Positions 3,439-31,980 of a DNA stretch of 32,897 bases are shown here, in pieces. Origin of the DNA: Catajapyx aquilonaris (Eukaryota). Location: contig KZ539119.1 in assembly GCA_000934665.2 (NCBI GenBank), positions 1 to 32,897 of the forward strand, written 5' to 3'. Under the pieces are notes generated by a model, which was not told where the DNA came from, made no database searches, and saw nothing but the letters and a program-made list of their open reading frames with translations. Position 1 is the stretch's first letter, and each line of letters opens with the position of its first letter. The translations under genes were made by a program, and so were the position numbers.

Positions 3439-3762
3439 CTAGCTGCGGCACCCGGCGCTGCCCGGGAAGAAATGAATGAAGGGAAAACACCTGCCAGTAC
3501 CCCCGTCAACTGTCTGTCTTTCTGTGTGTCCGGCCAACAATGCCATCTGCGGTCCAGCTACTCCAACACCTTGAACCTCTCCCGCCTGTATAACGGCAAC
3601 CGTCATTTGCCTGCCATCTGTAGTCAACCCCCAACACCTCATCCTCTCCCGGCCCGGGGGTGGAGCACAGATGGCAGGCAAATGACGGTTGGCAGGCGGA
3701 CAGACAGACAGAGAGGCAGACAGACAGACAGACAGACTCACAAACGGCTTTATTTATATAGA
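3439..3762 (-). mobile_element. Non-autonomous Helitron, copy 2
   Basis: On the minus strand it begins TCTATATAAATAAAG at 3762, carries the same microsatellite and internal inverted repeat, and ends in hairpin cccgggcagcgccggg plus CTAG|T (3442-3438). Confidence 0.85.
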
Positions 3763-4100
3763 CTAGCAGGATACCCGGCGTTGCTCGGGTTATGAAATAC
3801 TTTGAATGAATCGATGTATCGATGCTACATCCAGGGTTCCTGCTTTTCTGCCCTTTCGCCTCCTGCGGCCAATGATGACCTCGGAGGTCAAGTCCAAATG
3901 GGCTAAAAACGTTTCCCGTTAAAAACTACCCCTAATGATCAGCCTGGGGCATACGTCGAGGCCTCGGAAACAAGGAGACATACGTTGTGATATATGTATA
4001 TAAGATTCACCAGTTATTATTGGACAAATCGTTTAATTTTGACTCCAGAGTTGGATTACACAGTTTCGACTCAAAATTGGACTTTCTTCGGCAATGTCCT

Positions 4101-5552
4101 CTACGGATCATCTTGGTACTCCATGATGTGCAGTCTGATCTCCAAATTCCCGTACCATCCCGAATACTCCTGGAACTTCTGATGTATCACTTCAGGGTCC
4201 TCAGTCAGTTCGTCAAACTCGATGGTCAGCAGCTCCAACTCGTCTCCGATGTACTCGGTAACAATCGGCAGGATACCGAGCGAGAACGCCGAGCTGGTGA
4301 TGATCATCTTTCGCAGACGGGGCATCGGATTGCACTTGAGCAGCGAGTGGAAAGTGGCGTCTTCCAGACCTTCCACCATGTCCAGTCGGAGTGTCCTGAG
4401 GTCCTGACAGGAAGACATGAGGTACCTGAGATGGGATTTCTCGAAGGCGTTGTCCCAATCGCAGATGTCCAGGTATCGCAGGTGACAGAACGGGGTTTCG
4501 GTCAGTTCTGGCATCGGATCCGAATCGACCATGGTGCACTCGATTATGTCCAGTGTGATCAGATGCGGAAACACCTTCCAGATGTACTCCAAGTCGACGT
4601 CCAAGCAGGTATCCAAAGACAACAACTTAATGTTCTGAAGGCTGAAGCAGTCTGGATTCAGAGCCACGTTCATCTCCCTGACGTCCTCCAGGTACAGCCC
4701 ATCGAGGTCATGCAGCAATGGACCCAGATCAGATATCTGCTCTGGGGTCGCCCCTTTTAAAATAAGGGTCCTCAGGTGGACCAGCTGGTTCAGTGGGCTC
4801 AGAGATACGTTGGTAGGAAGATCGACACTGATGTACTCCAGCATCGGGAAGTGTCGGACTATGCGATCCAGCTGCTCCGAGTTGGTCACAGGTGAGTCCA
4901 TCTTCTTCACCGTGTATCGTCTCTTGCAGTTCTCAAGCATGTTGCTCAACAACTCGTTAGGAAAACGTATCTCCTGCAGCTGCGGTACGGTGTTGAGGAT
5001 GTACAAGACGTCAGTGCCCAGAGTCTGGTCCCTTAATATCACGTGAACACGAGTCAGGTTGGGAAAACTGGCAAGCACCACACTCTGGTCTCTCGACAGA
5101 CCCCATTTGAAGCTGAGCTCCTGGAGATGAGGACAGGACTCAAAAATCAGCGAGAAGAAGTTGTGCTCGTCTGTTATCATGGTTGCTGGAATCCACAGTT
5201 TTCGTAGCTTTTTGAGGTACGGTATGCCGTCCATCAGCTTCTTCGTCATGCTGCTCTGTCTGATGTAGATGTCGAGGCATTCCAGCTCCTTCAAGGTCTC
5301 CAGGTTGTTCAGTACTTGTTTCACTATATTTGTAGTTGCGAATGGCTCATCGGATAAATTGAGGGTGGTACACATGGGATGAAACGCTGGGCGCAAGGTG
5401 AATTTATCCCAGTGAATAACGTCGTCTCTGTCCGAGGATGCTTCCTGCAGCAACGTTACTGTGTACTGGTCCGCGAAATGGGGCGCTATCATCGCGACGT
5501 AGTTCTGGATCTCGTTGTACAAGGTGCCTATGTTGATGCATATGTCCTTCAT
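4101..5552 (-). CDS. RNI-like/F-box-LRR-type leucine-rich repeat protein (483 aa from first ATG), coding region uninterrupted
   Basis: Open frame 4101-5648. The track start is TTG; the first in-frame ATG is 5552 (acgATG, A at -3). Repeated LRR units: CPHLQELSF, FPNLTRVHV, VPQLQEIRF, FPMLEYISV, LVHLRTLIL, FPHLITLDI, FCHLRYLDI, CQDLRTLRL, MPRLRKMII. More GC-rich than its flanks. ATTAAA lies ~65 nt past the stop. Confidence 0.9.
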   Translation of the reverse strand: MKDICINIGTLYNEIQNYVAMIAPHFADQYTVTLLQEASSDRDDVIHWDKFTLRPAFHPMCTTLNLSDEPFATTNIVKQVLNNLETLKELECLDIYIRQSSMTKKLMDGIPYLKKLRKLWIPATMITDEHNFFSLIFESCPHLQELSFKWGLSRDQSVVLASFPNLTRVHVILRDQTLGTDVLYILNTVPQLQEIRFPNELLSNMLENCKRRYTVKKMDSPVTNSEQLDRIVRHFPMLEYISVDLPTNVSLSPLNQLVHLRTLILKGATPEQISDLGPLLHDLDGLYLEDVREMNVALNPDCFSLQNIKLLSLDTCLDVDLEYIWKVFPHLITLDIIECTMVDSDPMPELTETPFCHLRYLDICDWDNAFEKSHLRYLMSSCQDLRTLRLDMVEGLEDATFHSLLKCNPMPRLRKMIITSSAFSLGILPIVTEYIGDELELLTIEFDELTEDPEVIHQKFQEYSGWYGNLEIRLHIMEYQDDP

Positions 5553-5611
5553 CGTGTTGTCGGACTTGATTATGGAGAAAAACTCATTTGGCGTCGGCAG
5601 ACAATAACATC

Positions 5612-5697
5612 CTGTAAGCAAAACATATACACTCTCAGAATAATTCAAGCGTTGGAAACAAGTGCAGTGGCATACACCGACGATACAGAGAACTTAC
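5612..5697 (-). other. Candidate 86-nt intron in the 5' UTR of the LRR gene
   Basis: Donor GTG|GTAAGT (GT at 5697-5696) and acceptor ttttgcttacAG|G (AG at 5613-5612). No in-frame ATG found in the ~90 nt upstream of the donor. Confidence 0.55.
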
Positions 5698-5788
5698 CAC
5701 CTACTATATATAGATAGCGCCAACAGTGCACTCTGCGCGAAATGTGGTGCGCACTCGCTTGCGCTCGAAAAATAAAATTATCTAATTG

Positions 5789-6094
5789 CTAGATGCGGCA
5801 CCCGGGGTTGCCCGGGAAGAAATGAATGAAGGGAAAACACCTGCCAGTAGCCCCGTCACGTCAACTGTCTGTCTTTCTGTCTGTCCGTCCACCAATGCCA
5901 TCTGTGGTCCTCCTACTCCAACACCTTCAACCTCTCCCGCCTGTATAACGCCAACCGTGATTTGCCTGCCATCTGTAGGCAACCTCCAACGCCTCCATCC
6001 TCTCCCGGCCTGGGGGTGGAGCACAGATGGCAGGCAAATCACGGTTGGCAGGCGGACAGACAGACAGACTTACAAACTGCTTTATTGATATAGA
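5789..6094 (-). mobile_element. Non-autonomous Helitron, copy 3
   Basis: 5' end A|TCTATATCAATAAAG at 6095/6094, same body as copies 1 and 2, 3' hairpin cccgggcaaccccggg plus CTAG (5792-5789). Confidence 0.85.
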
Positions 6095-6119
6095 TTCATA
6101 CATCCCGCTTAACATTTTA

Positions 6120-7424
6120 AACTCTGTCACTTATTTGACTGATAATTATAATACCTAGTTCATGCCTAGTTCCATCATGCTTACCCCAGCTGCCTGCTGC
6201 TTCTGTCACCAACAGTTTCTGCATCACAACTTGATTGTTGTCCAACGTTATCACCTGCTGCTCAGATATGCCGCTGCATCTTGGTGTTTCTTGCAGTCGG
6301 TTACTCAACTTGGTTACAAGTTTGCTGAGTAACACGCAACAATCCAATACTGTACAAGCTATGCTGCTGATGCACATGCTCTCCAGTGAGAAAGGTTGGT
6401 GCAGTAGAGGCATGGTTCTATACGGAACAGAAGATTGTTAGATTTTTTTTTTTTTTTTAAAAAAGTTATAAACGCATGAATGTTCTCACCTGATTACTGA
6501 TTGTCTTGTAGGGGGTTAATATGTCTCCAAAAAAAACCGATTAAGTGAGATAAAATGTAAAGATATGAAATGTCTTCACTCGCTAGTTGCACTTCCAAAA
6601 AAAAGTGTAGAAGCCAACTTTTTTTTTGTCGTTAAGCAACAGTCAACAATAAATTTATTATAAACACTCTGTAGCCATAGACTAATAGCCATAGCTACAG
6701 GGTGATCAGTATTCTTGTGAACAATCAGCAGATTTTTTTTTTTTTGAGAAGTCATTTTGTTACGAGAAAAGCCCCGTAGTTGTTCCCACAACCCATTCAA
6801 ATCGCCCGCTCCTATTCTTCACTCTTGTTTGCTCACTTGAAATGCAGATGTCGCTACCTCCCGTCTGGTCCTCTTGTAATATATAGTCATTGGTCGGAAG
6901 CCATTTGCCTTTTTTTTTTCTTTTCATTTCTAGAACATTCCATCGGAAGTCGGATCGTCTTCGCCTCCGTCCCTCTCTGCCCCAGGGGCCAGACCAGGGG
7001 CCTGGCTCCTCACCTGGAGGCGAACACACGGGGGAACAGAAGCCTAGGAATGTATAGGCCAGGCCACATATCTATTAATATTTGATAAGGGCGTGTTATT
7101 TCTTGATTTTGCTGTATACCATTCGCGTCCTTGGATGCATGTCATCTGTCCAGCTGTGAAGTTCCACTTTCATCTTGTCTTGTTCATGTGGTTGAATTTC
7201 CGGGTCTTTGCCGCCGGAACTGGTAAGTACTGGAGATGAACAGCCACTTGCTTTGGTTGGTTACCTTCAGTCTGACGATATGATAACCTTATTCCTGGCG
7301 TGCATTCATCTCCGCCAAATGTGTTGGACACGATGGCACAATCATTTTCCCAATTTAATTTCGAGAAGAAATGGTCAATTATCCAGGTGTGTTTTAAAGT
7401 CCGGCCGATCTGGGCATTTTCCAT
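6120..7424 (-). pseudogene. Intronless MATH-BTB (SPOP/roadkill/TDPOZ-like) pseudogene
   Basis: Fragments occur in the expected order on the minus strand. MATH start KHTWIIDHF..IVSNTF..VAVHLQY (7424-7170); MATH end KWLPTNDYIL (~6905-6876); BTB start LWEQLRGFSRNKMTS..LLIV (~6790-6720); GDINP..RTFMRY (~6530-6468); SLESMC..TVLDCCVLL..NNQVVM..GSW (6390-6185). Broken by stops and by frameshifts at poly-A/T runs. Assigned from motifs by eye. Confidence 0.65.
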
Positions 7425-8121
7425 GTCTAGAAATAATTGAAGTTTTGAATATATTATTTAGTGCGGGTTTGATTCCGGCTAATCCGTATAGTTTTACTTA
7501 CCATTATAGTTACAACTCCAGCAGAAGCCCAGCACTTCTTCCCTCTGTGCTGACCCAGTGCAAAAAGGATTAGCGATTGGACAGTTCGCGTCTTATATTT
7601 CCTTGGAAGGCCCATACCACACTGTCTATTGGCCCATTATTAAAGTCCAAGATCATTTTTAAAAAAAGAAAAAAGAAAAAATAGCCAGAATGCCACCCCA
7701 TTTTTTTCCATTTGACGGATAATTACATGATCGCGTTAATTTAATGGCTATCAAATGCATTGTTGGCCATGTATTGATGTAAGCAATAATATCGGGTAGT
7801 GTCTTTCAGTGGGTGTACACTGTAAAAAAATTTGCGGAATGTTTTTTCTCTTTCATGTCGGGTACCTTTCCCGTGAAGTGTCAGAAAGCTTTGAAATCTC
7901 TTCCCTGTTGCAATGTTTTTGTCGTTTCGAGTGGTATATCAGGCTTGAATCATGCTGTACAGATGCGTATGGGGCAGAAGTTCTTCCTTGGGGAAGGTCT
8001 GATGACGAGTGGCATTTTCATTTTTGCTGTACAAAAATTGTAATGGTGAATCGCTCTATTTAATAATGCTTAATATGCTGACGTTTATACCATAAGCAGA
8101 TTCCATATTCTGCTGTTGAAG

Positions 8122-8420
8122 TTAAGAGTTTCCATTTGCACAATGTGGATATGTGTGCCCTCCAATGCTACCATTTAAGCATGTGTTGTCACTTATTAGG
8201 TGGGATTTGTGCAGGTCTTGAAGAATTTGGTCCATGTCTTCAGTCAAATTGGTCAAATTTACAGCTTCTTCCACGTTCTGTTTCATCTTCCTTGCCTCGC
8301 AGATCCTGTTGTATGTTTTGGGAAGGTAGATTTGTGCTACATGCAACAAGGCATTTTTTGTGTAATTATTTACTGTGACAAGACTACACAATATCAGCAT
8401 TCAGTTGGGTCCATTGCCAG
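8122..8420 (-). pseudogene. Repeated degenerate ORF of unknown (possibly viral matrix/accessory) identity
   Basis: TEDMDQILQDLHKS..VTTH is homologous to 26090-26280 (PEDID*LLQYLHKS..VTTHVEM; shared catgtgttgtcactta and ggatttgtgcaggt). Weaker relatives at ~12200-12480, ~14820-14960 and ~28780-28930. Confidence 0.4.
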
Positions 8421-8563
8421 TTCACAACTATTTGATAAACAGTGCCAAAGATGAAGTGTTGCTTCAGAATTTATAATATCTGTGCTGTCTTTGCCAGAAA
8501 TATCAGTGCGGCTTATATCTGGTATACTACTGGAAAAAATAGCTGGTCTTGAGTGCCGTTAAA

Positions 8564-8631
8564 CCCTGGTTTTGAAACCAGCATTGCTGGTATGCTGGTG
8601 TTTGCTGGTCTTGCTGGTTTCAAAACCAGGG
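8564..8631. mobile_element. Small MITE-like palindrome
   Basis: Perfect 20-bp inverted repeat ccctggttttgaaaccagca (8564-8583) / tgctggtttcaaaaccaggg (8612-8631), with internal tgctggt repeats. No clear TSD. Confidence 0.7.
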
Positions 8632-10619
8632 AATGATGTTCATTTTGGGCGACACTTGTGGAGCACTAGCCACAAGTCCATCAAATTAATAAAAGTGTAT
8701 GTCAATTGTCCACACACTTGAAAAGTTCAATAAGGGTGTCACTTGATGTACTGTACTAAGTTTTAAGCAGCATTAACGACATTGTACACTCCCAAAGGAT
8801 ATGGGAAATGACATAGTCCACCTCCTCAATTCCGCAGGACGCTGTACTTCTTCGAAACAGTCATCTCAGAATTTGTGTTGGTCATCTTTTCATAGACCCA
8901 ATTACAACTATCGTCTCCTGCAACACATACTTTTCATAGTTGTAAACAGGAGCTTCTAATTCTCACTTGGCAAACTGTGGATGTGTGAATCATGTTATTA
9001 GTGTACTGATAGTGAATAAGCCATAGGCCTACTGCTGTTCTTGATAACACTTTCTATGGTTCCATGTGCTGTCGTCCTCCCTTTATAAGTCCACAATGAG
9101 TATCAACGTACGGTCATAAGAAAAGGGTTGGCATAAATATTCCACATAAAGTGTACATACATTCATGGTCGTATTTGATGGCTGCTGGTTGACTGTTGTC
9201 TGGATGAGGTAATTCCTGCAAGCATGTGATGCAGATACAGATAAGGAGGGTCAAGTAAGGTTTTTCTAAGCAAGCCAATAGGCTACTTATTGGTCGTGTG
9301 ATTTTTGAATGGTATTCCATGGGTATTCCTTACCTATGTTCCAGGCGAGCTTGTACATCACTATGTGAACTGGCTACTGAAGTTGCAGCACATGCTGTTT
9401 GTGAAAATTGCAAAATTTATTTGTATTTGTTACACTAGTAAGTGGGTGCATTATTTTCCTTATTTGCTCAATTAGGTGGATCACTTGTGAATTCAATTTT
9501 AGTCAAAAAAGTGAGTGCCATAATATTGTGTTTTATTGATACTAGATATTATTTTAACAAAAATGATAATGTGGCAATGTCAGTTGCTGGATGTCAATGG
9601 TTATCCTTGTCTTGGCATGAATCCGTACCATTTCTGTGAAATTTCTGACCCTATCCATGAACACGGTGATGCCAATAATTCTACTGGACATTTAACTAGT
9701 GTCATTTGCTTCCATCCAAGCGACGGAATAGCAGCACAGCATTCCGAACATTATGTGACACATAAATTGGCGCAGTTTAGGAACTCAGTGGCATACACAC
9801 AATGTGCAGTCCGGCAAATTTCTCATCCACTTCCAGTAGAAATTTAAACTGTGACGTGAAATTGATGTTAGCTTCACATGACATGTTATGTTGTGGTTGG
9901 TGCCAATAATTGTCATATTTCAAGTGATTGTCTGTGAAAATCATAAATGTTATTATCTGTTCCCTTCATCTGCCTGATACGACTTAAGTGTTCCGATTCA
10001 TTGGAGATATTTGCTCGGGAATACACATTTCAGTTGTGTTAACCAGCAACAAAATGATGGTCACCGTCACACTGACTGTTCCGACCTGGTTGTTGACTTG
10101 GCTAGAGAGTCTTGAAGGCTCTCTACACTCCTAATACCATTATAATTACATATATACTCTGATACGTAACTACAGCGAGTGTCAGTTCGAGTGTGTAGTA
10201 GTTGGGAGGTAAACAACTGAAGGGTGGATGTCCCTACCTGGTCCCTACTAGTCCCTACCATAGGTAAAGGAAGGATCAAACTATGTTCCAACAACAGAAA
10301 TAGAAATGACCTGGTGGATTTTCAAGTAGTAAAAAAAAAAAGGCTTGTGCTTTCACCACATTTTGTGCCTTGCTGATGTTGCAAAGTCCTCGCTTCATCT
10401 CTGGGGCTTCGTTGTTACATATGTCACCGGCTATAGCTGTAGTTAAGGTGCTTGTCTTCATCCACTTTCATCAGAGGATATCACATCAGTCGTAGCGTGT
10501 AAATGAAATAGTAACTTTGGTTGTCTTCCTACACAATCGATGTCCTGTACACCAGGTATTTTAAAAATGTCAGCGACTTCCGAGAAGGAATGGTGTTACT
10601 TTGCACAGCATAATTACAT

Positions 10620-10944
10620 TTACAATTTTTTACTTGTTTAGAATTTTTTGGGTTTTCTTTTTTTCCCCTCCCGGTCCCATCCCTTGGGGCTGATTCATCA
10701 CATCTTTGCGGACGCGTGCCATACCGGTCACGGCCCCTGGGGTCGGGCTTTACCCCTCAGGCATCCCTCGACACCGGCCTCCCAGCCGCAGGATTACAGG
10801 AGTGCGCCCAGTGGTGCACAGGAGACAGAACAGGAGACAGAGTGGTGCACAGAACAGTGCACAGGAGGATTACAGGAGCTTTGCGCAGTGGCGATATCGT
10901 ACCCAATGAGGTCCAACCGAGGGGCGATTATTGCTAGTTGAAAA
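10620..10944 (-). mobile_element. Retroposon-like insertion (325 bp)
   Basis: 11-bp direct repeat cataattacat at 10609-10619 and 10945-10955. GC-rich body with a T-rich left end (A-rich tail on minus). Absent from the homologous block at ~23620-23650. Confidence 0.7.
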
Positions 10945-11240
10945 CATAATTACATGTCGTGCTGGAACTTAAAGTAAAGAGTATGTAAGCTATTTATGGG
11001 CTTTCCCCCCCCTTCGTTCACGTTCAGCATGTTGCCTTACAAGTTACAAGTGAAGGTTTCAAGCCATATGTGGAATGAGCGAACTCAAAGTGCAAAGTTG
11101 ACATTTTGCCTTAAAGCACGTACTCAGTAGACATCCTCTTACTTGCTGCTTTGAGCTTAACAAGCTTAATAAAGTGTAGTTAACAACAGCACTTTATTGT
11201 AGCACAATGTACTGTAGTTATTCTCAAGCGTACCAAATAG

Positions 11241-11279
11241 GTCCTGGAATGCTATTATTGCACTTTTTTAAGGGGACAC
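11241..11279 (-). repeat. Conserved unit-start motif, copy 1 (viral gene-junction-like)
   Basis: + strand gtcctggaatgctattattgcacttttttaaggggacac. Confidence 0.8.
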
Positions 11280-11339
11280 TTGCGCTTAACCTGAGCACTT
11301 GAAGTTTAGAACTAAGAAAATACCAGTAACATAATGTTT

Positions 11340-11950
11340 ATGGCTAACGTTGTATAAAAAGGCTTAACATTTAGTTCCAATTGGATCACATTGTGTACCT
11401 TGGCAAGTATTTTTGGACCAAGAAGATGCCATTCATTTGCATGCTGGTGCATGTAGAAGGAGATAGGAGACTATTCCTGTCTTTATGCATTAGCTGCTCT
11501 TCCTTGAAGCATCATGCAAAGAACCGTAATTCTTCCATATGGATGTCCTGGGACGATTTTTAAACATGGATCATATGTCTTCATTTTCATATATTTTTCA
11601 GTCAGCTGCATGGCACGAGAGGGGTTTATCTCACGGCTGCACTATTTGCATCTGGGCTACATTTTGACCACATTAAAAAGTCAATAAATCCTACTAATAC
11701 ATAGCTGTGCACCTTAAAATTTGCCAATGCATAGTTCATGCCATGACTTGGGAACAGTGATGCAACATAATGGTTTTTCTAGAAGTCTGTAAAGCGAATG
11801 GATATCATTCGACACTTGGAGTCCGTGTTACTTTTGTCGTCTTCAGGTGCACTTGGTCCAGATGGAAAGTTGGTTGATGCGACAAGAATACTTCGAGAGA
11901 ATATCTCGTCGATAGTAGCTACATCAGCAGTCACTAGACTATACTTAAAG
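11340..11950 (-). pseudogene. Divergent N-like EVE fragment
   Basis: TNFPSGPSAPEDDKSN aligns with HFPHGTIITPEDEKSN of the 13.3-14.4 kb copy. KIVPGHPYGRITVL is duplicated at 23880-24190. catgccatgacttgggaa is shared with ~26731. Confidence 0.45.
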
Positions 11951-12559
11951 TAACAGCTTAAAAGTAAATCCCTTCAACTTGGAATTTTACACGATGCAAG
12001 CACCACTTTCCATGATATTTCTAAAGCCTGTTATTATGTGAGGGACAAGTACTTTATGAAAAGTGAATTTGCGAGTTGGGTGGGAGCAAGTGGGTGGCTA
12101 AGGCTATGGTGATGGTCGGAGTTCCTTTTTTTAAATAATTCATGTTTGAGGCTTTCTCTGTAGTTCCCTGGACCCATCTCAGCCTTAGTCCGGAAAAAGT
12201 GTATGGTGATTCACTCTACATGCTTAATTTACTGACTTGTTAAGCATGCTATGTGCAGATTCCAGATTCTGGTTTAATTAGAATGACCCTTTCCTTGATG
12301 TGGAAGTGTGTCCATTTATTGGAACATATTAATCAAAATATTTAAAAATACAAATCTGCATGTTGCAGCACCTAGTATTCGCAAAGCCTCTTCGTGTGAT
12401 AAAGTGAGTATGACAAAACCGTAATTACACATATAAAAAGGGCCCTATCCGTTGTTGTGAGTCATTAACAACTGTTGGTGTACCGTTGATGGTACACAAG
12501 AGCATGTATTGTAGTGGTTTAGGGACTAACTTACACAAAGACAAAATTAGTCTCAAAAT

Positions 12560-13100
12560 CAGCGAATGGAATGATTACACCAGTTTTATACATTTGAAAA
12601 TGTAGATTGAATGAGGCAAAAATTGGCAATTCAACTCAACCCACCTGCTGATCATCCTCCATATATGTTATGCCATATGGGTAAAAAAATCGTCGTCCCA
12701 ACAGAATGTGTTTGCAGTGTTGTCTGCTTTGCAATGTGTCCGGATGTTGACTATCAGTCGTCGGAAGCATCCAGTTTTCAGATTTTGCATAATTATTATG
12801 ATTCCGCTGAGGCGCTTTCACTATGTTATTTATGGTGTTTCACAATGTTGCTGTTGGGCTGAAGCTCTGAATTAATGTATCAAAGGTTGGTTTCTTTATG
12901 TGTTGGAAGGGAATGGTATTCCGCTGCAGAGCCAAATACGAGTATTATTGCTCTCCTTTTTTCGAGTCTAAAAGTGGTGGTGACTGGTGTTGTATTATGG
13001 TGAGCAGAACCATCTCCTCGCATGATTTCATACTGTGCTGATTTTTCTTAATCCTGCAGGGATATATTATCAACATGTGAATCGTCAAAGGGCGATGTTT
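12560..13100 (-). pseudogene. Degenerate ORF downstream of N-like gene (possible phosphoprotein-position gene)
   Basis: IKKPTFDTLIQSFSPTAT..YMEDDQQVG is homologous to 29150-29750 (VKKPTFDTFIQSISPTAT..HMEEDEQVG). Identity is inferred from position only. Confidence 0.35.
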
Positions 13101-13379
13101 CATAACAGTGTGGAGATATCTCTGTCAGGAAGGAAATATGAAACATGCACATTCCTGCCATGTCTTAATGTGAAATGTGAAAAATAATTACTAAGTATTT
13201 TATGGCTTACCAATGAAGCTTATGATTCTCTTGGGACAAAGACCTCTTATGACTTGTCACTACTAGCCCTTTTCTGTAATCCATAGAAAATACTTATACT
13301 CAAAATGAGGTGGAATAGTCCAGAACAAATTGATTCTGTAAATTCGCAGATTTATTTGTCGTGTGTGTGTGTCGTGTAA

Positions 13380-14377
13380 GGTGGTCCTGAGATAACGCAA
13401 TAAGTACACCTGACGGCATTGTTTCCATCAGAATATCAACACTGATGCTTGATTAGTTAATGAAGATGGCTTATGGGGTATAGATAGTCTCCATTGTCCT
13501 TGCGAATTGGCTAATTTCACTTGATACAAGTGTCCGCAACTGCTTCCATGATGGTAACCATATGCTCAAAGTGCAATCTTGAATATTTTTCACTGTGTAA
13601 CGGTGTGCTGTATTGTCAACATGAGTGCCCATTGCTGAAATTATTGTAGGTGAATGGTAATAGTATTTGGTACAAATTGTTGCCGTATTTTGTTATTTGT
13701 AATTTGTGAACTCCGTTGAGCAACATGGCCTTGTGGGAATTATACTTCTGTTTTAATTCTGCTAACAGCTTTGAACCCTGTTCATCCCCAGCCTTGATCT
13801 ATAATGTGAGTGGGGCGTGACCAGTTCTGAATCTCAGTCTCAATATGTTACTCCTTGTTAGATATGAGTTGCAATGCATTTCGTAAATGGCACTCTTTTA
13901 TTTGTGCATCTGTTTGGCTGAAGACCATGTTATAAATTGATTAATCCAGGCCTATTGCTTTTTTCATCTTCAGGTGTAATTATTGTACCATGTGGGAAAT
14001 GCACATGACAATACGAGTGATGGTGTCTTCTTATGGACCAAACATGGCGACCACCACTTGTCATTTCCACTCGTCCCAACCTTTAACTATAGAAAGTGTA
14101 CCATGTTGCCGCCCCTGGTCCCGGACCCTGCCCACCTGAAGCTCAACACTGAAACAGCCGCAACAAGAGGACTGGCTTGTTGGCAAGTAATTATGCCAGG
14201 GTTGGTTAATTCTCTTTGTTTCAGCTTCAGGACTGGCCCTGCTTTTGTCACTGAGAAGTCCGTTTACGACATGATAATAAATGGGTTGCAAGTATCAAAC
14301 TGAATAAGTCAAAACTGAAAAAATGCAAAATGTAGCTATTTTCACCAATTGCAAGTACACCCTGGAAGGCTTTCATT
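13380..14377 (-). pseudogene. Nucleoprotein-like EVE (Mononegavirales/Jingchuvirales-like)
   Basis: In order: VVAMFGP (~14035-14055), FPHGTIITPEDEKSN, GDEQGSKLLAELKQKYNSHKAMLLNGVHKLQITKYG, RLHFEHMVTIMEAVADT (~13530-13580), SEISQF (~13504-13521), GDYLYPISHL (13463-13492). The order matches the C-terminal lobe of borna/nyami/xinmo-type N proteins. Multiple stops and frameshifts. Confidence 0.6.
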
Positions 14378-14397
14378 GCCCTTTTTTAAGGGGACAC
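14361..14397 (-). repeat. Conserved unit-start motif, copy 2
   Basis: + strand cctggaaggctttcattgcccttttttaaggggacac. Confidence 0.8.
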
Positions 14398-14402
14398 ATG
14401 TA

Positions 14403-21299: not shown

Positions 21300-22330
21300 T
21301 CATTTGTTCCCTTGGTCCCCTTGGTTTCCTCTCTTGAATTCTTCACTCTTACTTTCTGCTAGTCGTGCACAGGCGCACCCATCATTTGTCAAACTTGCCG
21401 CACCGCTACACCTGAATATTAAATGGCATGTGACCTAATAAGAGAGAGGTGTAGGCCTACCTTCCTTTGGTAAGGTGGAATTTATAATATTGCTGGAGAG
21501 GACTAGGTGATAATAAATTGTGGCCCAATAATTCGGTTTTATGGATTGCGTCTTGGTTGGTTGGGTATCAGGCCCATCATGTTTCCTGTTAGTGCCTTTA
21601 TTGTTCTGATACATCACATATCGTAAGGAAATTCAAGTCTTGAATTTCGGATAATCATGATTTGTCTCCGGCTGGGATATTCAATTGGTGCGTTACGGTG
21701 TTTTACCCTGATCGAGGTTTTGCAATGACCTTATCACAATATTCATGTACACTGTAAAATAACCCACCACTAGTTCTTTGTTGGCCCTTCGTTTATTATA
21801 CAGTACGTTGCTTTATTAGGTGCCATGTAGTCACAGTGGCCGACGATGAAAACTATTTGTCTGGAATCACTCTTTTTGTAATGGTGGGCTGGGCGATAAA
21901 TTTCACCTTTCACCTTTGTACATATGTATTGAAAAAGTCTCCGTCCGTTATGAATCATGTGTCTCCGACGTTATCCTTAGGAACTCTTGATGCCTGATGG
22001 TAACTCGCACCAAATGTCACCAGATTGTCAACATTTGACATAATATTTAAAAAGTCTCATTGCTGTCACAATGCAATACAATACAATTTTTATTACCCCC
22101 TGGTATCCTTGCCAGGGGGGACTTCACTCCCATTACATTGCTGTCACAATTCCGCCAGTGGTGCACGTCTATGTGCCTCTGGTCCAAAGAGAAAAGGGAT
22201 CAGGATCACTCGATTAAGTAAGATCTGGACTTTGTAATTGTCTTAAATCCCTCTTCCAGTATCGGCTTCGGCAAAGCCTCCCGCAGCAGTCCCTTAGCCG
22301 CAATGGTAGAGGCCTCTCCCTCCCCCTGGA
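21300..22330 (-). pseudogene. Highly divergent nucleoprotein-like EVE
   Basis: Follows motif copy 4. ILIPFLFGPE corresponds to VAMFGP. LSEIQDL...KHDGP/xYP occupies the position of EISQF...YP. Little nucleotide similarity to the other copies. Confidence 0.4.
22073..22135 (-). mobile_element. 5'-truncated LINE/SINE 3' end (63 bp)
   Basis: 15-bp TSD cattgctgtcacaat (22058-22072, 22136-22150). On the minus strand: stem-loop ccccctggcaaggataccaggggg, then AATAAA and a (ttgta)n tail. Confidence 0.85.
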
Positions 22331-22351
22331 ACGTCCTTTTTAGGGGGACAC
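22325..22351 (-). repeat. Conserved unit-start motif, copy 4 (internally shortened)
   Basis: + strand cctggaacgtcctttttagggggacac. Confidence 0.7.
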
Positions 22352-22819
22352 GCTTGTACTTCTATAGCAAAAATTAGGGATATTGTGGAAATTGTCCAAG
22401 ACTGAGGATTACAGCCATGCATTTATTATGGTATCAGTAAACATGTGACTTAATTTTGTGATGTAAGTATGGTTACTTAATTTCATTTTAATTATGACAA
22501 ATTTTGTGATTTTGTTGATTGACTCAATAGTATTTATTTAACTATTGAGCCTGATTTATACTACGTATGTTTGGAAGAATCACGCTGATTGAGGTTATTT
22601 TGGAAGACGCAGTGATTTCATGAAGTTGCAGTGTTTTGTATGCTTGAGCAGAATACAAAATATGTTGTGGGACCAAGATGCCTGATGCATTTTGTCACCA
22701 CTGCCCAGGATCTGCGATACAGCCATTTTTCTATATGATACATGGATTTCAAATTGTCAATCCTTTCCGACCAACCGGAACCAGGAGGAATATTCCGAAA
22801 AATTGAGTCGGAGACACAA

Positions 22820-24190
22820 ACTCTACTGGACATTTCATCAGTGTTCTTTGCTTCTATCGCACGAATCAAGGCTACTATCTAGGTGCTCTATGTTGTCCAC
22901 CTCCTCTTAAAGTGATTGTGTCTGAAAACGTCATCTGAAGCTGGAACTTTTGGCAAGCGACGGAATAGCAGCACTGCTTGGTCGAAAATTATGTGACACA
23001 TAATGTGGCATGTTTTTCCATATTTCCCCAATTTATCTAATTTATTCGTTTATGTCAACATTCACTTTGATATTGCTGGTTTATAGGTTACATCCTTATA
23101 TGATTAATGTCAGTGCATTTCATCTAAATGTCCCCTCTCATTCTTGGCAAAGCGACGAGTACGTCACATACTTTGCCAATATTTTTATAGGCGGGACAGT
23201 AGTGTTCCATAATTGGAACTGTCCAAAGAAAATCCCGATGTGACTATGCCAATCCCTTATGATCAGACATGATCGGATGCGATGTAGTGACTCATATCAA
23301 CTCGGTCGAGGTGTAAGCTTGATGCTGTACAGTCACCTGAACCTCATGTCCTGCCAACAACAGAAATAGAAATATCCTGATGGATTTTCAAGTAGTAAAA
23401 ACAATTGGACTGTGTTTTCACCACATTTTTTGCCTCTGTTGATTTTGTGAAGTCCTCTCCTCATCTCTGGATCTTCGTTGTTATAGGCCACCAGCCGCAG
23501 CTCAGAATATGTCGTGGGGCCTTGTCTTCATCCTCTTTAATCGTCTGTCACAGCTGTCTTAGCGTGTAAATGAAAGTGAGAACGTTTGGTAGCCTTCCTC
23601 CACAATCAGCTAGTGTCCTGTACTATGTTGCTTACAAAAGAAAGATTCAAGTCATATATGGAATGAGCGAACTCGAAGTGCAAAGTTGACAGGCTGCCTG
23701 AAAACGTCTAGTTACTTGGTTACTTGCGGCTTTGAGCGAAACGAGCTTAAGTAGTCAACGACAGTATTAATCTTAATTGTAACGCAATGGAGTTATTCTC
23801 AATAGTAGCCTACCATAAACGTCCTGGAACACTATTATTGCCACTTTTTAAAGGGGACGCTTATACTTCACTTCAGACCACTTGGAAAGAACCGTAATTC
23901 TTCGATACGGATGTCCTGGGACGATTCTTGAAATTGGGTCACATAGTCTCCATTTGCATATATTATTCAGTCGGCTGTATGCCACGAGGGGATCTATGTC
24001 ACGGCTGCACAGGCCAGTTTTCATCTGGGCCACATTTTTGGCCACATTAAAAGTCCAATCAATCCTACTAATACATACTGTAGCTGTGCATCTTAAAAAT
24101 TAGCTTGATAATTCATGTCATGACTTGTTGTCTTATGCGATAAGAATGCGTCGCAAGAATATCTCGTCGAGTAGCAGTATCAGCAGTACA
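22820..24190. repeat. Long duplicated segment homologous to ~9680-11930
   Basis: Shared in the same order: ctactggacattt, aagcgacggaatagcagcac, ccaacaacagaaatagaaat, tggattttcaagtagtaaaa, ggaatgagcgaactcXaagtgcaaagttgaca, aagaaccgtaattctt, ggatgtcctgggacgatt, agaatatctcgtcga. Confidence 0.85.
23821..23858 (-). repeat. Conserved unit-start motif, copy 5
   Basis: + strand gtcctggaacactattattgccactttttaaaggggac. Confidence 0.8.
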
Positions 24191-24431
24191 CGATATAGGC
24201 ACCACTTCCCCTGGCATAGGGGAGTGTCTTCGTGTCGCCTATGTCTGACGCTGTCCTCTCGTTCGTGGCTGCTTCTTCTGGGCTGCTTTTATCCAGTCCC
24301 CCGTTACTCAGGCTGATTCGCCTTCGTTACATTGTCGCAATGCTGGATTACTATGAATCACTGCCTGAGTGATCCCGCTGCTCTTGTCACCCTTTACACA
24401 TGGGGCACCCTACTATTAGTCCCCCATTACA

Positions 24432-24868
24432 TACCAGATAACACGGCCCCAGAAGTCGTCTGGGCGAGGCAGATGTTCCAGGGCGAATCCCACCCGCTGG
24501 TCCCGATGTTGAGTCAGCTTGATGGTCTTCTTCGGGCGTCGGCAGTGGACGCCACCTTTCTGGAGTCGCTTCCGGACCGTCCGCGTCGAGACCTCCAGAT
24601 CCAGGATCTCTAGTAGCCGATCAGATGGCTGGAATGGGTTTTCGTCCGTGTGAATGATATATGGCGGCATCTTGCTGCGGAGTGGTCTTCCTCTTCGGGC
24701 CCACCTTGGCTGTCTTCCTGTGGTCTTTCCCCTTCTGCTTGTAGGCATTGACCCAGCGGCGCACAGTATGTGCTGAGATCTCATTGTAAGTTTTTTCCGC
24801 ACAGCGAAAACCCTGCAATTATCCGTCGGGTCACCTCTGAAATGTTGGCGTACTTCATCGTGTGACAT
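24432..24868 (-). mobile_element. Tc1-like transposase fragment (N-terminal HTH domains, frameshifted, truncated before the DDE domain)
   Basis: ISAHTVRRWVNAY..GPKRKTTPQQDAAI, then ENPF..LEVSTRTVRKRLQKGGVHCRRPKK..LTQHRDQRVGFALEHL..DFWGRVIW. Breaks where SDE would follow. Confidence 0.85.
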
Positions 24869-25599
24869 CACCGTAAGAAAAAGGCTGGTATAAATGTATT
24901 TACGTGTTGTCCATCTGCAACCCTTCTCTCTCCTTGAATTTGCTGGCGCTCTGACTGTCACCGATCCTGAAGGACGCGGGACCACTGGTTGTTCACCTTT
25001 GCCTTAATATGTTGTAGCTAACTTCACGCCTTCACTTGTGGGGTTATTTCAGCGTCAGCAAGTTAATACTTGCTGATGTCTGCTCCTCTGTGATGTGGTT
25101 TCCTGGAACGATCATTGTCTTTGACTTTGGGACACCGTGTCTTCCTTCGCACACATTTTTCAGCCAGTTGCATGGCGCGATGGGGGAGTGCATGGTCCAC
25201 AATATATTAGGCCCAATACTACATGTTATTATAACTAATTATTCTGATGATGATTTTTGACGATTTATTACTATTATGTACTGATAGCATGCCCATTTGG
25301 TTCTGCGATTCGTCCAGATCTATCCGGCCTGCTATATTTCATCATGTGAATGTCCGCATTTGGGATATCGATTCTTCGTCTTACGGACGTGTATATCTGT
25401 CACCTGCCATTTGTAATCTGCATGAAATGTTCATGACATACGTGCGTTTATGATGCGAATCAGGCATCAGCAAATCACACATTACTGAGGAGGAAAAATT
25501 AGTTTATGCTTATTCTTCATGTCGTTTACTCGACAATTGCTTATATCCTCTGGACTTATCATTTGTCGTCATCCGCATTTCTACGGTACGGCATCAACT

Positions 25600-25636
25600 T
25601 TATGGGCCTTTATGGTCGGGTCGCCGTAACTCTGAC
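25600..25636. mobile_element. 37-bp insertion flanked by a 17-bp direct repeat
   Basis: acggtacggcatcaact at 25583-25599 and 25637-25653. Confidence 0.6.
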
Positions 25637-26599
25637 ACGGTACGGCATCAACTATTCACATTTAAAACGCAACAAGTGCATCATTTGATGAATAATTTGT
25701 CCGCACGGCTACATATTTATGGGTAGTTTGTGCAGTGGTTCTCCCATGTTTGTCGCTGGCCTGCCTCTCTTGTTTGTTTTCCCCTGAGTCGTATGCTGCT
25801 TCCAGTTCTCTGTTCAGCTCACCATGCATCTTTTATCGGAATTGTGTACTTCCCTACTTAGTGGCATCAGTATTTCAGGAAAGAGAGTGGTCATTAATAA
25901 TGATTTCAATGGGGACAGTGGGGTACCAGGGAAAAAAAGTTGTCTCTTATTTCCAGTTCTCAGTTGTGTTGACATGCAGGCCTCCTTTGCGTGGTGGCCC
26001 TTTGGGTTTGGGTGACGTTAAGCATGCTTCGTGCATATGCCAAATTATGGTGTAATTAGAGCTTCACTAGTTGCATGAAGTGGAGGTGTGTGGCATTCAA
26101 TGCTACCAAATACCATTTCAACATGTGTTGTCACTTACTTGGATTTGTGCAGGTATTGAAGAAGTCAGTCTATGTCTTCTGGTATTTTGGATTTTATTCT
26201 GGCGCTCCCTGCCGTTCTAATATGTTTTCTTCCCGTGCCATATTCTGTTGTATGTGTCGCAATGGTGCATTTGTGTTGCTGATGGAGGCCAGCACTTCAT
26301 CGGTGCCTATGAAGTACCGTGGTTTCATTTCGATTTTAGCAACAAAAAAAAAAATCAATGCCACCATAGTGTCACTGTCTATAAATGATTTTTATAGCCA
26401 TTACTGGTGTATCAGTACCACTTAGCACTCGGATATTTAAATCATTTTCGAATATATGGTCTCCCTTTAATGCGAATAGAAAGCCACTGATATGAGCCAA
26501 AGAGTTATACATCAGAAGAAGTGTTAATCTTCGGCTTGCAAATGGAGTTATCATCTTGTGCAAATAATGTTTGGAGGTCCGAGGTTTATTTGTCCATCT

Positions 26600-27115
26600 A
26601 TGAATTTATTTGTCACATGTTTGAGGTAGAATTGTTCAGAACTGCTCACACAACACTTTTAGAATGGTGCCTGTGATATTTAAGCTACGTTCACTGCAAC
26701 GCCACGTATTATCAAGATAATTTAATAATTCATGCCATGACTTGGGAAGTAGGCCTTCTGCAGTGATGCAAAGTGTATAAAGCGAACCATAAATTGATGA
26801 TTGACCGTAAAAAAATAATTCGATACTTAAAATGGGTTTCCAGTGTGTTGCATTATTCATCTTCAAGTGCAATTGCTCCAGGCGGGAAATGTACTCAACA
26901 AAAATGAGTGGCTGCGTCGTCTTATAGTATAAGCTTAGACCAAACATGGCGACCCGCACTTGTCATTTGTGCTCGTCCTAACCTTTTTAACTTGCAGGTG
27001 AACTATGTTGAGAGTAGTTCCCTGTCCAAACCATCACTATGGGAAGGGACGAGCTGCTAATTACCCCCTCTCTAGTCAGCCACGATATCGCTCTTCCTGT
27101 CTGCACCACCCAGGG
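26600..27115 (-). pseudogene. Nucleoprotein-like EVE, partial copy
   Basis: VAMFG (gaccaaacatggcgac at ~26938) and FPPGAIALEDE. ttgagagtagttccct is shared with ~16848 and, with one mismatch, ~31564. Confidence 0.55.
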
Positions 27116-29999
27116 GTTAAGATATTGGTTCAGATTTTTTTATCTGACAAAATGATTAAGATCATCTTTGCTGGATCCTCATATCGCTGTGTGCAATATA
27201 CCAGGCGTGAAGTGGAAAGTGTCGCTTCTTTCATTGATAGTCTGAGCATGCTCCATTTCCAGGCATCACAAATAATTTAGTCGATTTAGTAGACCACCAT
27301 ACCAATTCATTTGAAATCCTTTACTGCGAATGGGCGTGTCTGGAGATCGAATGTCAGGGTCCATGGAAGATTTGTCAAGAGGATGTAAAAGAGTCGCAGG
27401 TGGCCACGTCTCTGTATGTCGCATGGGCATGATTACTCGATCCTCTATCTATACCGACCAGCATCGTATGTTTTTCTGACTTGATTCAATATATTACACT
27501 CAAAGTTATTATACAGGCTATTTTTTCTGTGGGTGAAAAAAAAACTATAATGTGGTCCTTCTATGATATCATCCTCAGGTTTCAGCATACACTTCTCTGT
27601 ATTGTTGGACACAATGATTCCGAGTGTATTGTTCAGGGAAGTCGCTGACCACTTGGACAGCACCTCAGTGTGTATGACATGTCACACTTTGAGAGCACCG
27701 AGTTCCTTCCCTATTTTCCACATTTTTTCTCCACTTGATAAATGCATAATATCATATTAAATATTATTATATTACAAATAATACACTAATAATATCATCG
27801 CGGCCGTGCCTTCGGTCAACTGGTACTTCTGTCGAACAGAAAATGACGAGAGGGGACATGACTGCCGCACATTTTGCTGTCCAGAGTCTCCCCATCTAGT
27901 CCTGCGAACTCTTAAATGCACAATTTTTATTGAGAGATTTGGAATGTCAGTCGTTCCATGCTTTCCTTTTGTTTCGTTACCGTTGACTTCAGGCCTCGAT
28001 GATGTTCAGATGAAACACTTCCTCTTCAATCGATTTTCTGCGGCCATAGTCCTTAGCACTTGTAGTGATAATGGGCGAAATTAGATTGAACCATTGTAGC
28101 TGGACGAATTCCCCTGTTTCTTGGCATGGTCGTGGAGTCGAATAATTATTTTCAATCCCTGCAGTGTTGCTACAAGGAAACAGTATGTTTCCTGTCATTT
28201 ATATACCTTCTCCGTCGTTGATGAAGGGCACAAAGTGGTTGTTTATGCAGCCTTTGAATAATGGTCGTCGTCCGTCTGTTGGATTCGATCTAACTGTACG
28301 TGTGTCACTTTTTCGACTGTCCGAGCCCTTCGACCCTGGGAAGATCATGTAGCAATAACGATAAAAATAAGTGCTCATATAGTATTATGGAGTATTTGAA
28401 ATCGAGTATTTTTGTCTGGGGGACCTCTTCTTTCTCCAGGGTTCCTGGAAGTCAATTGGCCAAGCTTACAGCCAACCAGAATCAGGGGAATATTCCCGAA
28501 TAAATAAATGAAATCTATAATAAGATCTCCCACAGTTTCATGTCAGTTACTACAGTGGAAAATGGAGAGTTCTGCGGAATTGTCAGTATTAAGAAAATAT
28601 ATCATTGTTGATTTGGAAAATATTTATCCTAAGATTAATACCACTGCTACATCCCATGCCTGCTGTGTATGTTTGGGATGATCTGAACCCACTGTTGATA
28701 AACCGTTCTGGAGCGGTGGGCTGTCCAATCAGTCTCATGTGCGTTTCGTCCTTTGTGTGTGTGTGTGTATTGGAAAAAGCATACCTCCTTCCTCAAAATG
28801 CCTCCGATTGGAAGTTCTGCATGTACAACACTACGTCTTCTTGCTTTGATTTCTCTAAAGCAGAAATATGTACAATAAGTATAGCAATACGCTATATCGG
28901 CCCGATCTTTAGCTATTACTTTATAACTATCTCTGTAACATACTTTTTCAGAAGGCAAATTAAAAGTATATTCCAAATGTTATCATTTTAACTAAACCTA
29001 TTTAAAGCAGAATACAGTACGTACAGTAGTTCACTAAAAACCTCTGAAAGGCTCATTTTTACAGTATCCAGGACCATTTTCGGACTACGTGTATTTTAAC
29101 GAGCATGTTTTGTTGTGGTTTCGGGACGAATTTACGTAATGACAAAATTAGTCACAAAGCCAGCATATGAAGTGAATACGTGGTGCTGCAAATGTCGATG
29201 GAAGGAGGCGGCAACAATGGACAACTCTACCGACCTGCTCGTCTTCCTCCATATGATTACTCACATATTACGTATATTATCATACGTGTATTTGTGCTGC
29301 CAACACACAGAATGTGTACGAAGTGCTGTCTGAGTTGCAATATTATGTCCAGATGTTGTCTACCAGTCGTCGGCATTATCATGTTCCATTTTGCGTAATT
29401 ATTATATTATTCTACTGAGGCTTCTTCACTATGTCGCAGTGTTTGATTTTAGGTGTTGCTGTTGGGCTGATGCTCTGAATGAATGTATCAAAAGTTGGTT
29501 TCTTTACGAGTTATATTAAAAGGGATTGAAGGATCTTCCGATGCAGAAGGTAGCATCAATTGTTGCTCTCCGTTCTTTTGACTTCTGACTACTCCCATGG
29601 AGTGTATACCTTTGAGGTCACAGACTCTTACTGTTAGACGTGGTTGTTGACTGAGCTGAGCAGGCCCATGTTCTCACATACCTACGTTGTTCTCATTCTG
29701 CAGTCATACATCAACATGTGAATCTTGAAAGGCCGATGTTCTGCACCAGCCACAGGCGTAGGTGATGTCCACGCATCAAAAGGTTTAGCATCCATTCCAG
29801 GCCATTTGTGAATATCTGGGCAAGTTGTCATCCTTACGTGCTTCTGTCTTTACGTAAATGTCACTATTCTGTCTACCGTTGCGTTATATGCTTTTCCTGC
29901 CAGGTGGAACACTCGCTTTACTCTTGTCCCTATACGTTTCTACATTAACAGACGACAAAGAGGCACATCAGTCTTACCTCTCTTTTAATTACCTTTGTT

Positions 30000-30680
30000 A
30001 TCCAGTGTCAAGTTGAAGCTTTATGAACAAAATGCCTAATCTTGATTGACAGTCATGGTGTAAATTTTCTTTGATCGAGTAATTCGTACAGTAATCGGCC
30101 TCCCAGTTTTGGCATTGCATTTTAAAGGCGCATTAGTGCGGAATATTTTTCTTTCTAAGTGAGGGACAACGGGAGCCGACTTTGGGCCTCCCATGAAACA
30201 TGGGTTCTTATTTTTAGCAGCTGCAGCCTTTCGTCGCACTTTCCAGTATGCTTGACATGTAGGATTCATTTGCTATTCTGAGTAGATTTGCATGGCTGTG
30301 GTTCGATTCTGGGAAACCATTACTGTCCCCTTGCGTGTCTGAGCAGTGTCCAAGTGACCATTGTTGCCATCGCCTTAACTCAAGCGTATAGCCGGACAGC
30401 AATAAATAAGTGAACCATATTTTGTTATTTGTTATTTGTGAAGTCCATTGAGCGACATGGCATTGTGAGAATTATCCTTCTGGTCTTCATTCGTCTGAAA
30501 GCTTGGGAGCCCTATTCAACCCCAACCTTTATCTGTAATGCGAGTGAGTCGTGACTGGTTCTTAATAACGAGTGTAGCTGGCCGTCGCTGGCAACCCCAT
30601 AACGGGAACATGCCGTGATTGTAATTATTGAATTGATTAATTTTTAATATACGCCTCGTTAGATATAACTTGGTTGTCCT
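30000..30680 (-). pseudogene. Nucleoprotein-like EVE, partial copy
   Basis: 30415-30560 is homologous to 13686-13830 (attttgttatttgt, acatggcXttgtg, cttXXagccctattca). LRIANESYMSSILESAT aligns with RLHFEHMVTIMEAVAD. Confidence 0.55.
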
Positions 30681-30779
30681 TCTCGTTGCCAGACTATGCG
30701 TGATTACTGATTATTATGCTTCTGCTGAGGCGACTTCACTATGTCGAAGTCGTTCATTTCAGGCGGGGATTTATTTGTC

Positions 30780-31959
30780 GTATACAGGTAGTTTCGTATC
30801 AGCTTTTGTATAACGCAATCAGTCCACCTGACGGCATTGTTTCCGCATTGTGTCAAGTAAATGGAGACGGCAAAAGGGGTATAGATTGTCTAGGTCATCA
30901 CTTTGAATTGGCTCATTTCACTTCACTAAGAGCTTATTCATTTTCTGAATTTATCAGTGAGAGATACTGTAGTGGACTTCAATCTGACTTGGGACCAGTG
31001 CTGATAACAATGACTACTTATGTGCAATACTTGGAATCTATGAATATAATTATATTCTCTAACACAGCTTTCAAACTGTGAAAAAACATTGGACAGGATT
31101 GGTCCATTCACTGAAGATTAGTGCCAAGTACAAATTAAATGTGATTAGGAGGGCAATAATAAATTATAGCATGCTGCGTAGAGATTCTATTATTTGGGTG
31201 TGATGAAATTTCTAGCACCAGGTAAAATATCATATATACCGCATAAATGATGCCCATGGTGTATTTTTAAGTGCCTTGGATTTTTAAATACCGGTATTAA
31301 TTATTGTTAGTACAGTCATGTCTCAGGAATATCTCGAACCTAACGTCAGTACGTCGTGACCAGTTATGAAGCAACAGCCTCAATGTTACTCCTCGTATGA
31401 GTCGCAGTGCATTTTGTAAATGGCATTCATTAATTTGTGCCTCATTTGGCTTATCTATAACTGCTCTTAAGAGCATGTTATAACTTGCCGAATCCAGACC
31501 TCTACTTCTTATGGACCAAACATGGCGCTCGTACTAATCGTTTTAGGTAACAAGTGTACCATGTTGAGAGTAGTTCTCTCTCCCAACCATCACTAGAAGG
31601 GAGCTTCTTGCCTCTATCTAGTCATACAGAAGAATGGAGAAGAAGCAGGGACGTCTCTCTCCCTCTCTTGTCTGTGTGCACCACCTAGGGGCCGCCCCTG
31701 GTCCCATAACCTGCCCACCTGAAGCTCAACACCACACTGAAGCGGCCCCAAAATGGGGACTGGCTTGCTGGTCAGGTATAATTATGCCAGGGTTGGTTAA
31801 TTCTCCGTATGTATCAGGACTTGCCGTGCTTTTGTCTAATTTCTGATAAGCCTGTTTATGACGTGATGTGTAAGTACTTTGTACTTTATGAAAAGTGAAT
31901 TTGCACAATGTAGCCATTTTGACCAATTGCAAGTACAGTACATCCTGGAAAGCTCGCAT
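30780..31959 (-). pseudogene. Nucleoprotein-like EVE, paralogous copy
   Basis: Starts MRAFQDV after motif copy 6. ggaccaaacatggc at 31513, SEMSQF (~30905-30922) and DNLYPFCRLHLL (30855-30890). cacctgacggcattgtttcc is shared with ~13407. Confidence 0.6.
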
Positions 31960-31980
31960 TGTACTTTTTAAGGGTGTCAC
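31943..31980 (-). repeat. Conserved unit-start motif, copy 6
   Basis: + strand tcctggaaagctcgcattgtactttttaagggtgtcac. Confidence 0.8.

Follow-up and report, generated by a model that had tools for sequence, protein, structure and literature searches.

A T-rich, head-to-tail duplicated graveyard of decayed repeats with one-way polarity on a Catajapyx aquilonaris contig

We analyzed a 32,897-nucleotide stretch of Catajapyx aquilonaris DNA (contig KZ539119.1, positions 1 to 32,897, forward strand; hereafter the window), which is eukaryotic, has a GC content of about 0.40 and contains a 337-base N gap at 2537-2873. A match to the U4 small nuclear RNA (snRNA) and the forms of a short interspersed nuclear element (SINE) and of several Helitron-like copies are consistent with an animal. 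The initial annotation had described positions 3,439 to 31,980 as resembling a uni-strand cluster that produces PIWI-interacting RNAs (piRNAs), with viral, transposon and gene fragments strongly biased to the minus strand. At present, the locus is a polarised repeat graveyard, the main parts of which are the following:

6101..32520, plus strand: polarised domain with a T-rich plus strand, a gene-free mosaic of decayed repeats, delimited by AT skew and a change-point
7944..32531, plus strand: network of old head-to-tail duplications, from nhmmer tiles and blastn
13478..17188, no strand: the clearest tandem pair, offset 2,846 (nhmmer, 13478-14397 versus 16324-17188)

The AT skew is below zero in 52 of the 53 bins of 500 nt between 6101 and 32500 (mean -0.115), is still -0.10 when homopolymer runs are removed, and is significant in a sign-flip test (p=0.004 with 3-kb blocks, p=0.03 with 5-kb blocks). 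Left of 6.1 kb the skew is near 0, and the best change-point, 6,080, falls at the outer end of a Helitron-like copy (copy 3, below); the mariner remnant at 32528-32897 has a skew of +0.049. Three-base periodicity is gone in the domain, in contrast to the leucine-rich repeat (LRR)-like open reading frame (ORF) to its left, and among the 248 stop-free frames of at least 48 amino acids beyond 5.7 kb (125 minus, 123 plus) a credible Pfam match was found only in the ORFs of a Tc1 remnant. The short segment 18900-19100 shows extreme skews (GC +0.59, AT -0.30).

Within the domain, duplication is extensive and runs in one direction. At E <=1e-3, the nhmmer tiles yielded 153 plus and 9 minus matches (control, 0), and all nine minus matches are palindromic elements pairing with themselves. 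The plus matches merge into 36 paralogous pairs, every one of them direct, that cover 11,640 of 26,400 nt, a duplicated share of at least 44%; the caveat of the initial annotation that duplication of units inflates the orientation bias is thus borne out. Two weaker minus nhmmer matches (E 0.002 and 0.009) join 14.9-15.1 kb to 2.2-2.3 kb. With blastn, every one of the 35 high-scoring segment pairs to the right of 6.1 kb is direct, and identity is mostly 69-83% in the long ones; a permissive search added one weak inverted match in the domain (8712-8757 versus 31932-31977, E 0.013), and its reversed control gave one match at E 0.038. Block order is preserved between 9.7-11.9 and 22.95-24.19 kb, between 13.5-14.4 and 16.3-17.2 kb, and between 13.8-14.7 and 31.3-32.1 kb, which favors duplication over separate insertions, and is collinear in part only across the domain as a whole. 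Further copies of the tandem pair lie at 26.8-27.1, 30.35-30.57 and 31.3-32.0 kb. The divergence of the copies looks neutral: in the blastn alignments of the paralogues, third positions show no excess, and a length that is a multiple of three is found for 25 of the 113 gaps. From these patterns we infer that the paralogues are old, neutrally decayed head-to-tail copies. Such copying keeps orientation, and hence same-orientation paralogues give no independent orientation information.

Two alignments of the tandem-pair repeats (A1 and A2) produced no credible Pfam or PDB match, a homologue search with A1 gave 0 matches, and metagenome contigs contained no match to a 22-base pattern taken from the repeated core. 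By eye, we take 13.5-14.1 kb and its copies to be piggyBac- or MULE-like on the minus strand, which no search confirmed, and the repeated cores in general to be presumably nearer to remnants of DNA transposases than to virus genes, an impression without tool support. A short motif in which a run of T precedes a run of G recurs on the plus strand only (11267, 14385, 17176, 22339, about 23850 and 31967), with a spacing of about 3 kb in the left half, and may represent an old element end within the duplicated unit.

A duplicated pattern can also be made by mis-joined haplotypes or repeats, and the window does contain an N gap in a genome that is in many pieces. The long blocks, however, are only about 69-83% identical and differ by many indels, a divergence well beyond what errors of haplotype or of collapse would produce; an assembly artefact is highly improbable. 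Another possibility is that the polarity is purely inherited, that is, the whole domain grew by head-to-tail amplification of one ancestral unit with an A-rich sense strand, the seemingly unique DNA consists of copies too decayed to detect, and the later insertions are minus by chance in a region that is not transcribed. The detected duplication indeed grew with search sensitivity, being 7,717 nt with blastn and 11,640 nt with nhmmer, the invariant alignment columns are already skewed (-0.116) with no asymmetric substitution seen, and the recurrence of the T-run/G-run motif about every 3 kb in the left half fits the same scenario. On the other side, non-duplicated DNA is as skewed as duplicated DNA (-0.111 versus -0.116), with a T-rich plus strand in 15 of 16 unique segments, and therefore detectable duplication is only part of the explanation; younger, unduplicated pieces are T-rich on the plus strand as well (24189-25077, AT skew -0.246; 29751-30351, -0.208), and the partly collinear block order implies that more than one unit was involved. 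All considered, a purely inherited polarity appears improbable.

Apart from the duplicated mosaic, the window contains several oriented insertions, two of which lie outside the initially annotated interval:

10620..10944, minus strand: 325-bp retroposon flanked by an 11-bp target-site duplication, its A-rich tail on the minus strand
22073..22340, minus strand: 3' end resembling a long interspersed nuclear element (LINE), with a hairpin, AATAAA and a short-repeat tail
24419..25003, minus strand: frameshifted, truncated Tc1-type transposase remnant (PF01498, E 2.4e-10)
about 18500..18900, plus strand: R1-like non-long-terminal-repeat (non-LTR) C-terminal zinc-finger remnant, read by eye
1596..1882, plus strand: tRNA-type SINE with a 14-bp target-site duplication, outside the interval
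32528..32897, plus strand: mariner transposase 5' remnant (HTH_48, E 0.004, below cut-off), outside the interval

The 325-bp retroposon carries nucleotides 1-68 of U4 snRNA in the plus sense (10877-10944), and a paralogue near 23.6 kb lacks the retroposon stretch. Here a LINE-like tail on the minus strand is joined to an oppositely oriented U4 sequence, an inverted snRNA chimera that possibly arose by twin priming or template switching. The element at 22073-22340, which we take to be a LINE by eye only, is flanked by a 15-bp duplication, and its hairpin has a z of -2.6. The Tc1 remnant is accompanied by an HTH_32 match (E 0.0011) in the neighboring frame. For the R1-like frame, Pfam did not confirm the assignment and a homologue search gave 0 matches.

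The left neighbor of the domain is a Helitron-like module, a further copy of which lies outside the initially annotated interval:

3429..6094, minus strand: Helitron-like composite of copy 2, an extra 3' end, the LRR gene and copy 3, defined by 5' TC and 3' hairpin-CTAG ends and by identity
3429-3762, minus strand: Helitron-like copy 2
about 3762-3790, minus strand: extra Helitron 3' end
4104..5693, minus strand: intact LRR-like ORF that has no intron and spans 530 codons between stops, with an ATG near 5552
5783-6094, minus strand: Helitron-like copy 3
1912..2240, plus strand: Helitron-like copy 1, inverted relative to copies 2 and 3, outside the interval

The three copies are 90-93% identical to one another. 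Copy 3 lies upstream of the ORF, and the extra 3' end and copy 2 lie downstream. The segment 3429-6094 combines a 5' TC, a 3' hairpin followed by CTRR and same-orientation cargo between the ends, the features of a non-autonomous Helitron that holds a captured gene. The ORF is the only long intact frame of the window (GC 0.51); its Pfam LRR matches are weak (best E 2.8e-5, below cut-off), and a homologue search gave 0 matches. A TATA-like stretch lies beside it, near 5710. Given that captured genes usually share the orientation of the Helitron, as stated in passages of PMC12001565, we counted the ORF and the Helitron ends as one event; the ORF is probably Helitron cargo acquired by whole-gene capture together with copies 2 and 3. 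Because the ORF lies to the left of the change-point, between Helitron ends, the module is probably outside the polarised domain, with which it is arranged head to head. Judging from its ends and the skew change-point, the module would be a separate, younger neighbor; youth might explain its absent skew, yet the older DNA to its left is unskewed as well. No Helitron copy was detected within the T-rich domain.

Four independent minus events in the initially annotated interval could be supported: the Helitron-LRR composite, the 325-bp retroposon, the LINE-like tail and the Tc1 fragment. The by-eye readings of DNA-transposon and RTE-like remnants were left out of all orientation tallies. The count is 4 of 4 minus inside that interval (p=0.125), and for the window as a whole it is 4 of 7 (p=1); with the by-eye R1-like piece, the count inside the interval would be 4 of 5 (p=0.375). 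Only if the original list is taken as all real and independent does it reach 10 of 12 (p=0.039). For the later insertions in the T-rich domain with a sequence-based orientation, the tally is 3 of 3 (p=0.25). The reported minus bias persists in part, as a one-way polarity from about 6.1 to 32.5 kb and four independent minus events, and is narrower and less independent than claimed. Among the listed items, the LRR gene, Helitron copies 2 and 3, the retroposon, the 22.1-kb tail and the Tc1 piece are indeed minus, whereas the endogenous viral elements (EVEs), the MATH-BTB pseudogene and the LINE ORF1 and endonuclease remnants were not recovered. The exceptions had been sought inside the interval, the limits of which leave out three adjacent plus elements, namely the SINE, Helitron copy 1 and the mariner remnant.

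EVE fragments were not confirmed in Pfam, PDB, phmmer, Atlas or viral-contig searches, no MATH or BTB domain was identified in Pfam and PDB searches, and the same search set identified no LINE ORF1 or endonuclease. All these negatives are weak because the DNA is heavily frameshifted (every few dozen codons), and read-through coverage is incomplete: the minus read-through frames mostly leave out 22.4-23.85, 26.3-27.0 and 30.4-32.25 kb, and the plus ones cover 9.5-9.9, 17.2-19.5 and 32.6-32.9 kb only. At E <=0.01, Pfam matched 3 of the 125 minus and 0 of the 123 plus stop-free frames; the three are two Tc1 frames and a sub-threshold, virus-named Peptidase_S77 match (E 0.0062, 17868-18224). Together with a second sub-threshold virus-named match, Arena_ncap_C (E 0.17, 15930-16208), this is about the chance yield of hundreds of queries. 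The minus read-through frames of 6101-19400 had no Pfam match (0 of 9), and further read-through sets gave 1 of 24 (mariner), 2 of 36 (weak, unrelated) and 1 of 24 (weak, unrelated); in another set of 33 queries, nine had a match to some family at E <=10, none of them reaching the cut-off, and credible matches are confined to two mariner frames. PDB searches gave no matches or unrelated ones at E 0.76 or worse, phmmer with one of the three minus frames of 6700-10299 found 0 matches among 1.84 billion proteins, viral contigs gave one 8-residue chance match (L001) and otherwise none, and Atlas searches gave no usable match or a generic coiled coil. The last applies to the frame that is probably the 'ORF1' of the initial annotation:

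18182..18556, minus strand: 125-codon frame, coiled-coil-like only

This frame matches generic hypothetical and coiled-coil Atlas clusters with a low recognition score (bZIP_1, E 0.073). Near 12.0 kb, the 'BTB' stretch is by eye about as readily taken for a Harbinger C-terminus, a reading that is likewise unconfirmed. No gag, reverse transcriptase, RNase H or integrase family was found by Pfam in the 248 stop-free frames or the read-through frames, and the 20 largest of 42 repeat families include nothing like a pair of LTRs, although very old LTR debris could escape such a search. With no viral fragment confirmed, an antiviral role has no basis at this locus; antiviral targeting is unsupported, as is targeting of the LRR and MATH-BTB gene families. 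The segment 6700-7700 is unduplicated and relatively CpG-rich, with several open frames of 95-125 codons on both strands; no search identified it (Pfam, PDB, phmmer, Atlas, viral contigs), and of the candidates for a foreign insert that are left it is the best.

The remaining features have no orientation or were read by eye:

14399..14615, no orientation: two tandem palindromic units resembling MITEs (miniature inverted-repeat transposable elements), fold z -13
32077..32185, no orientation: palindromic MITE-like insertion, fold z -11

A near-perfect MITE-like palindrome is also present at 8559-8636, and any transcript of these palindromes would fold into long hairpins. At 30300 the plus strand carries an isolated B-box-like motif, possibly a decayed plus-oriented SINE head; relaxed ARAGORN matches were taken as noise, the SINE head excepted. 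The segments at 8.1-8.3, 12.2-12.4 and 26.0-26.3 kb we take by eye to be Harbinger-like, and those at 27.4 and 22.3 kb to be presumably pogo-like and RTE-like, respectively, all unconfirmed.

Of the possible explanations, we tentatively favor, at somewhat less than even confidence, a transposon graveyard with duplications that lies in an ordinary region transcribed along the plus strand, as opposed to a dedicated piRNA source. In this account, decayed mobile-element DNA forms an old mosaic at about 6.1-32.5 kb, which underwent several rounds of head-to-tail copying and erosion by deletions and was afterwards struck by a few insertions. The copying accounts for much of the one-way cargo, as shown for at least 44% of the domain. 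The force along the plus strand would be long-standing ordinary transcription, for example because the region lies in a long intron, encodes a non-coding RNA or is reached by read-through. Transcription biases base composition and disfavors sense insertions that carry poly(A) signals, and so could be responsible for both the uniformly T-rich plus strand and the minus orientation of the retroposon, the LINE-like tail and the Tc1 piece. The small number of independent oriented events (4 of 4, p=0.125) favors this reading, and the failure to find any gypsy/LTR or viral domain favors it over a dedicated piRNA source.

Several observations weigh against ordinary transcription. Substitutions that could be polarised are not asymmetric between the strands in any of six class pairs (p 0.25-0.84, low power), and neither is CpG decay (26 versus 32, p 0.51, low power); the plus strand shows no depletion of AATAAA (14 observed, 10.2 expected), and these footprint negatives are weak. 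No plus-strand exon or gene was found, and no direct sign of transcription was seen. Furthermore, local duplication is present in real piRNA clusters according to part of PMC10495008, and the human result on transcription discussed below may not hold in arthropods. There is also no excess of splice signals on the plus strand. As to read-through from an upstream gene on the plus strand, no plus frame before 6.1 kb exceeds 144 codons except for one of 273 codons, which runs antisense to the LRR ORF, and one of 219 codons that is mostly N gap, and such a gene could lie outside the window.

The alternative is a uni-strand piRNA source, in which a plus-strand precursor starting near 6.1 kb would be cut into U-starting piRNAs antisense to transposons, with selection having kept antisense fragments and internal duplication having enlarged the locus. 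The same signs are expected for a piRNA precursor and for ordinary transcription, and sequence alone does not separate the two. In its favor, the domain is sharp-edged and gene-free with a uniformly T-rich plus strand, all three later insertions in it with sequence-based orientation are minus, as are the unconfirmed by-eye remnants of several DNA-transposon superfamilies, and, in passages of the respective sources, somatic piRNAs are described as widespread in arthropods (PMC11726155) and uni-strand somatic clusters as occurring from flies to crickets, one of them holding few transposons (PMC13172572). Conversely, there is no gypsy/LTR element, the class that drives the bias of flam-like clusters in excerpts of PMC10643416, no EVE was confirmed, three of three minus gives only p=0.25 with the R1-like piece being plus by eye, the mostly very old content may match few active elements, and the window has no upstream plus gene of the kind that most Aedes core clusters have in passages of 10.1101/2022.08.22.504762. 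On balance we regard a piRNA source as possible, a little less probable than duplication with ordinary transcription. A more specific version, namely a gypsy-free uni-strand source, possibly of a non-insect arthropod, composed of old DNA-transposon and LINE scraps, internally duplicated, one of at least a dozen loci, recognizable by T skew and aimed mainly at DNA transposons, seems rather unlikely. If a plus-strand piRNA source were nevertheless real, one-strand clusters would extend beyond the gypsy- and EVE-centered insect examples, and a sharp-edged T-skew domain with direct-only duplications would be a cheap sequence signature for clusters for which there are no RNA data.

Compared with known systems, the Helitron-LRR module resembles Helitron gene capture as outlined in the relevant passages of PMC12001565 in that Helitron-type ends flank the ORF and share its orientation; it differs in that the cargo is an intact intronless ORF and not a fragment, and, unlike the Helitron-derived tandem arrays treated there, the T-rich domain contains no detected Helitron copy. 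Ordinary long human genes, as characterized in the parts of PMC1391917 that concern transcription units, show composition skews and an antisense repeat bias that is least for DNA transposons. The present locus shares the one-strand composition skew and antisense retroposon bias, and differs in that no poly(A)-signal depletion, substitution asymmetry or host exon is seen. The Aedes core clusters, which mostly arise by read-through from an upstream gene, hold antisense non-retroviral EVEs (nrEVEs), and nrEVE copies duplicated after integration are reported (10.1101/2022.08.22.504762; PMC8048955, both in part); the one-strand layout and the duplicated copies have counterparts here, whereas the locus has no confirmed nrEVE, no LTR neighbors and no same-strand upstream gene within the window, its only intact ORF being on the opposite strand. 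In size, the clusters of the proTRAC set exceed 35 kb and the scan in the sections of PMC10643416 concerned used 100-kb windows, compared with 26 kb visible here, a size bounded by the end of the window inside the mariner remnant. As for flamenco and the flam-like clusters, the former is 50-79% antisense, with local duplications and with sense R1 copies in the simulans clade (PMC10495008, in part), and the bias of the latter is driven by Gypsy elements, including full-length copies (PMC10643416, in part). Like them, the present locus is gene-poor, repeat-derived and locally duplicated, with one dominant orientation and some sense exceptions; it differs in that they are Gypsy LTR-driven, with none found here, and in that its content is old, short and largely duplicated. 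Because the Gypsy feature is lacking, we do not file the locus as flamenco-like, although it could work in the same way.

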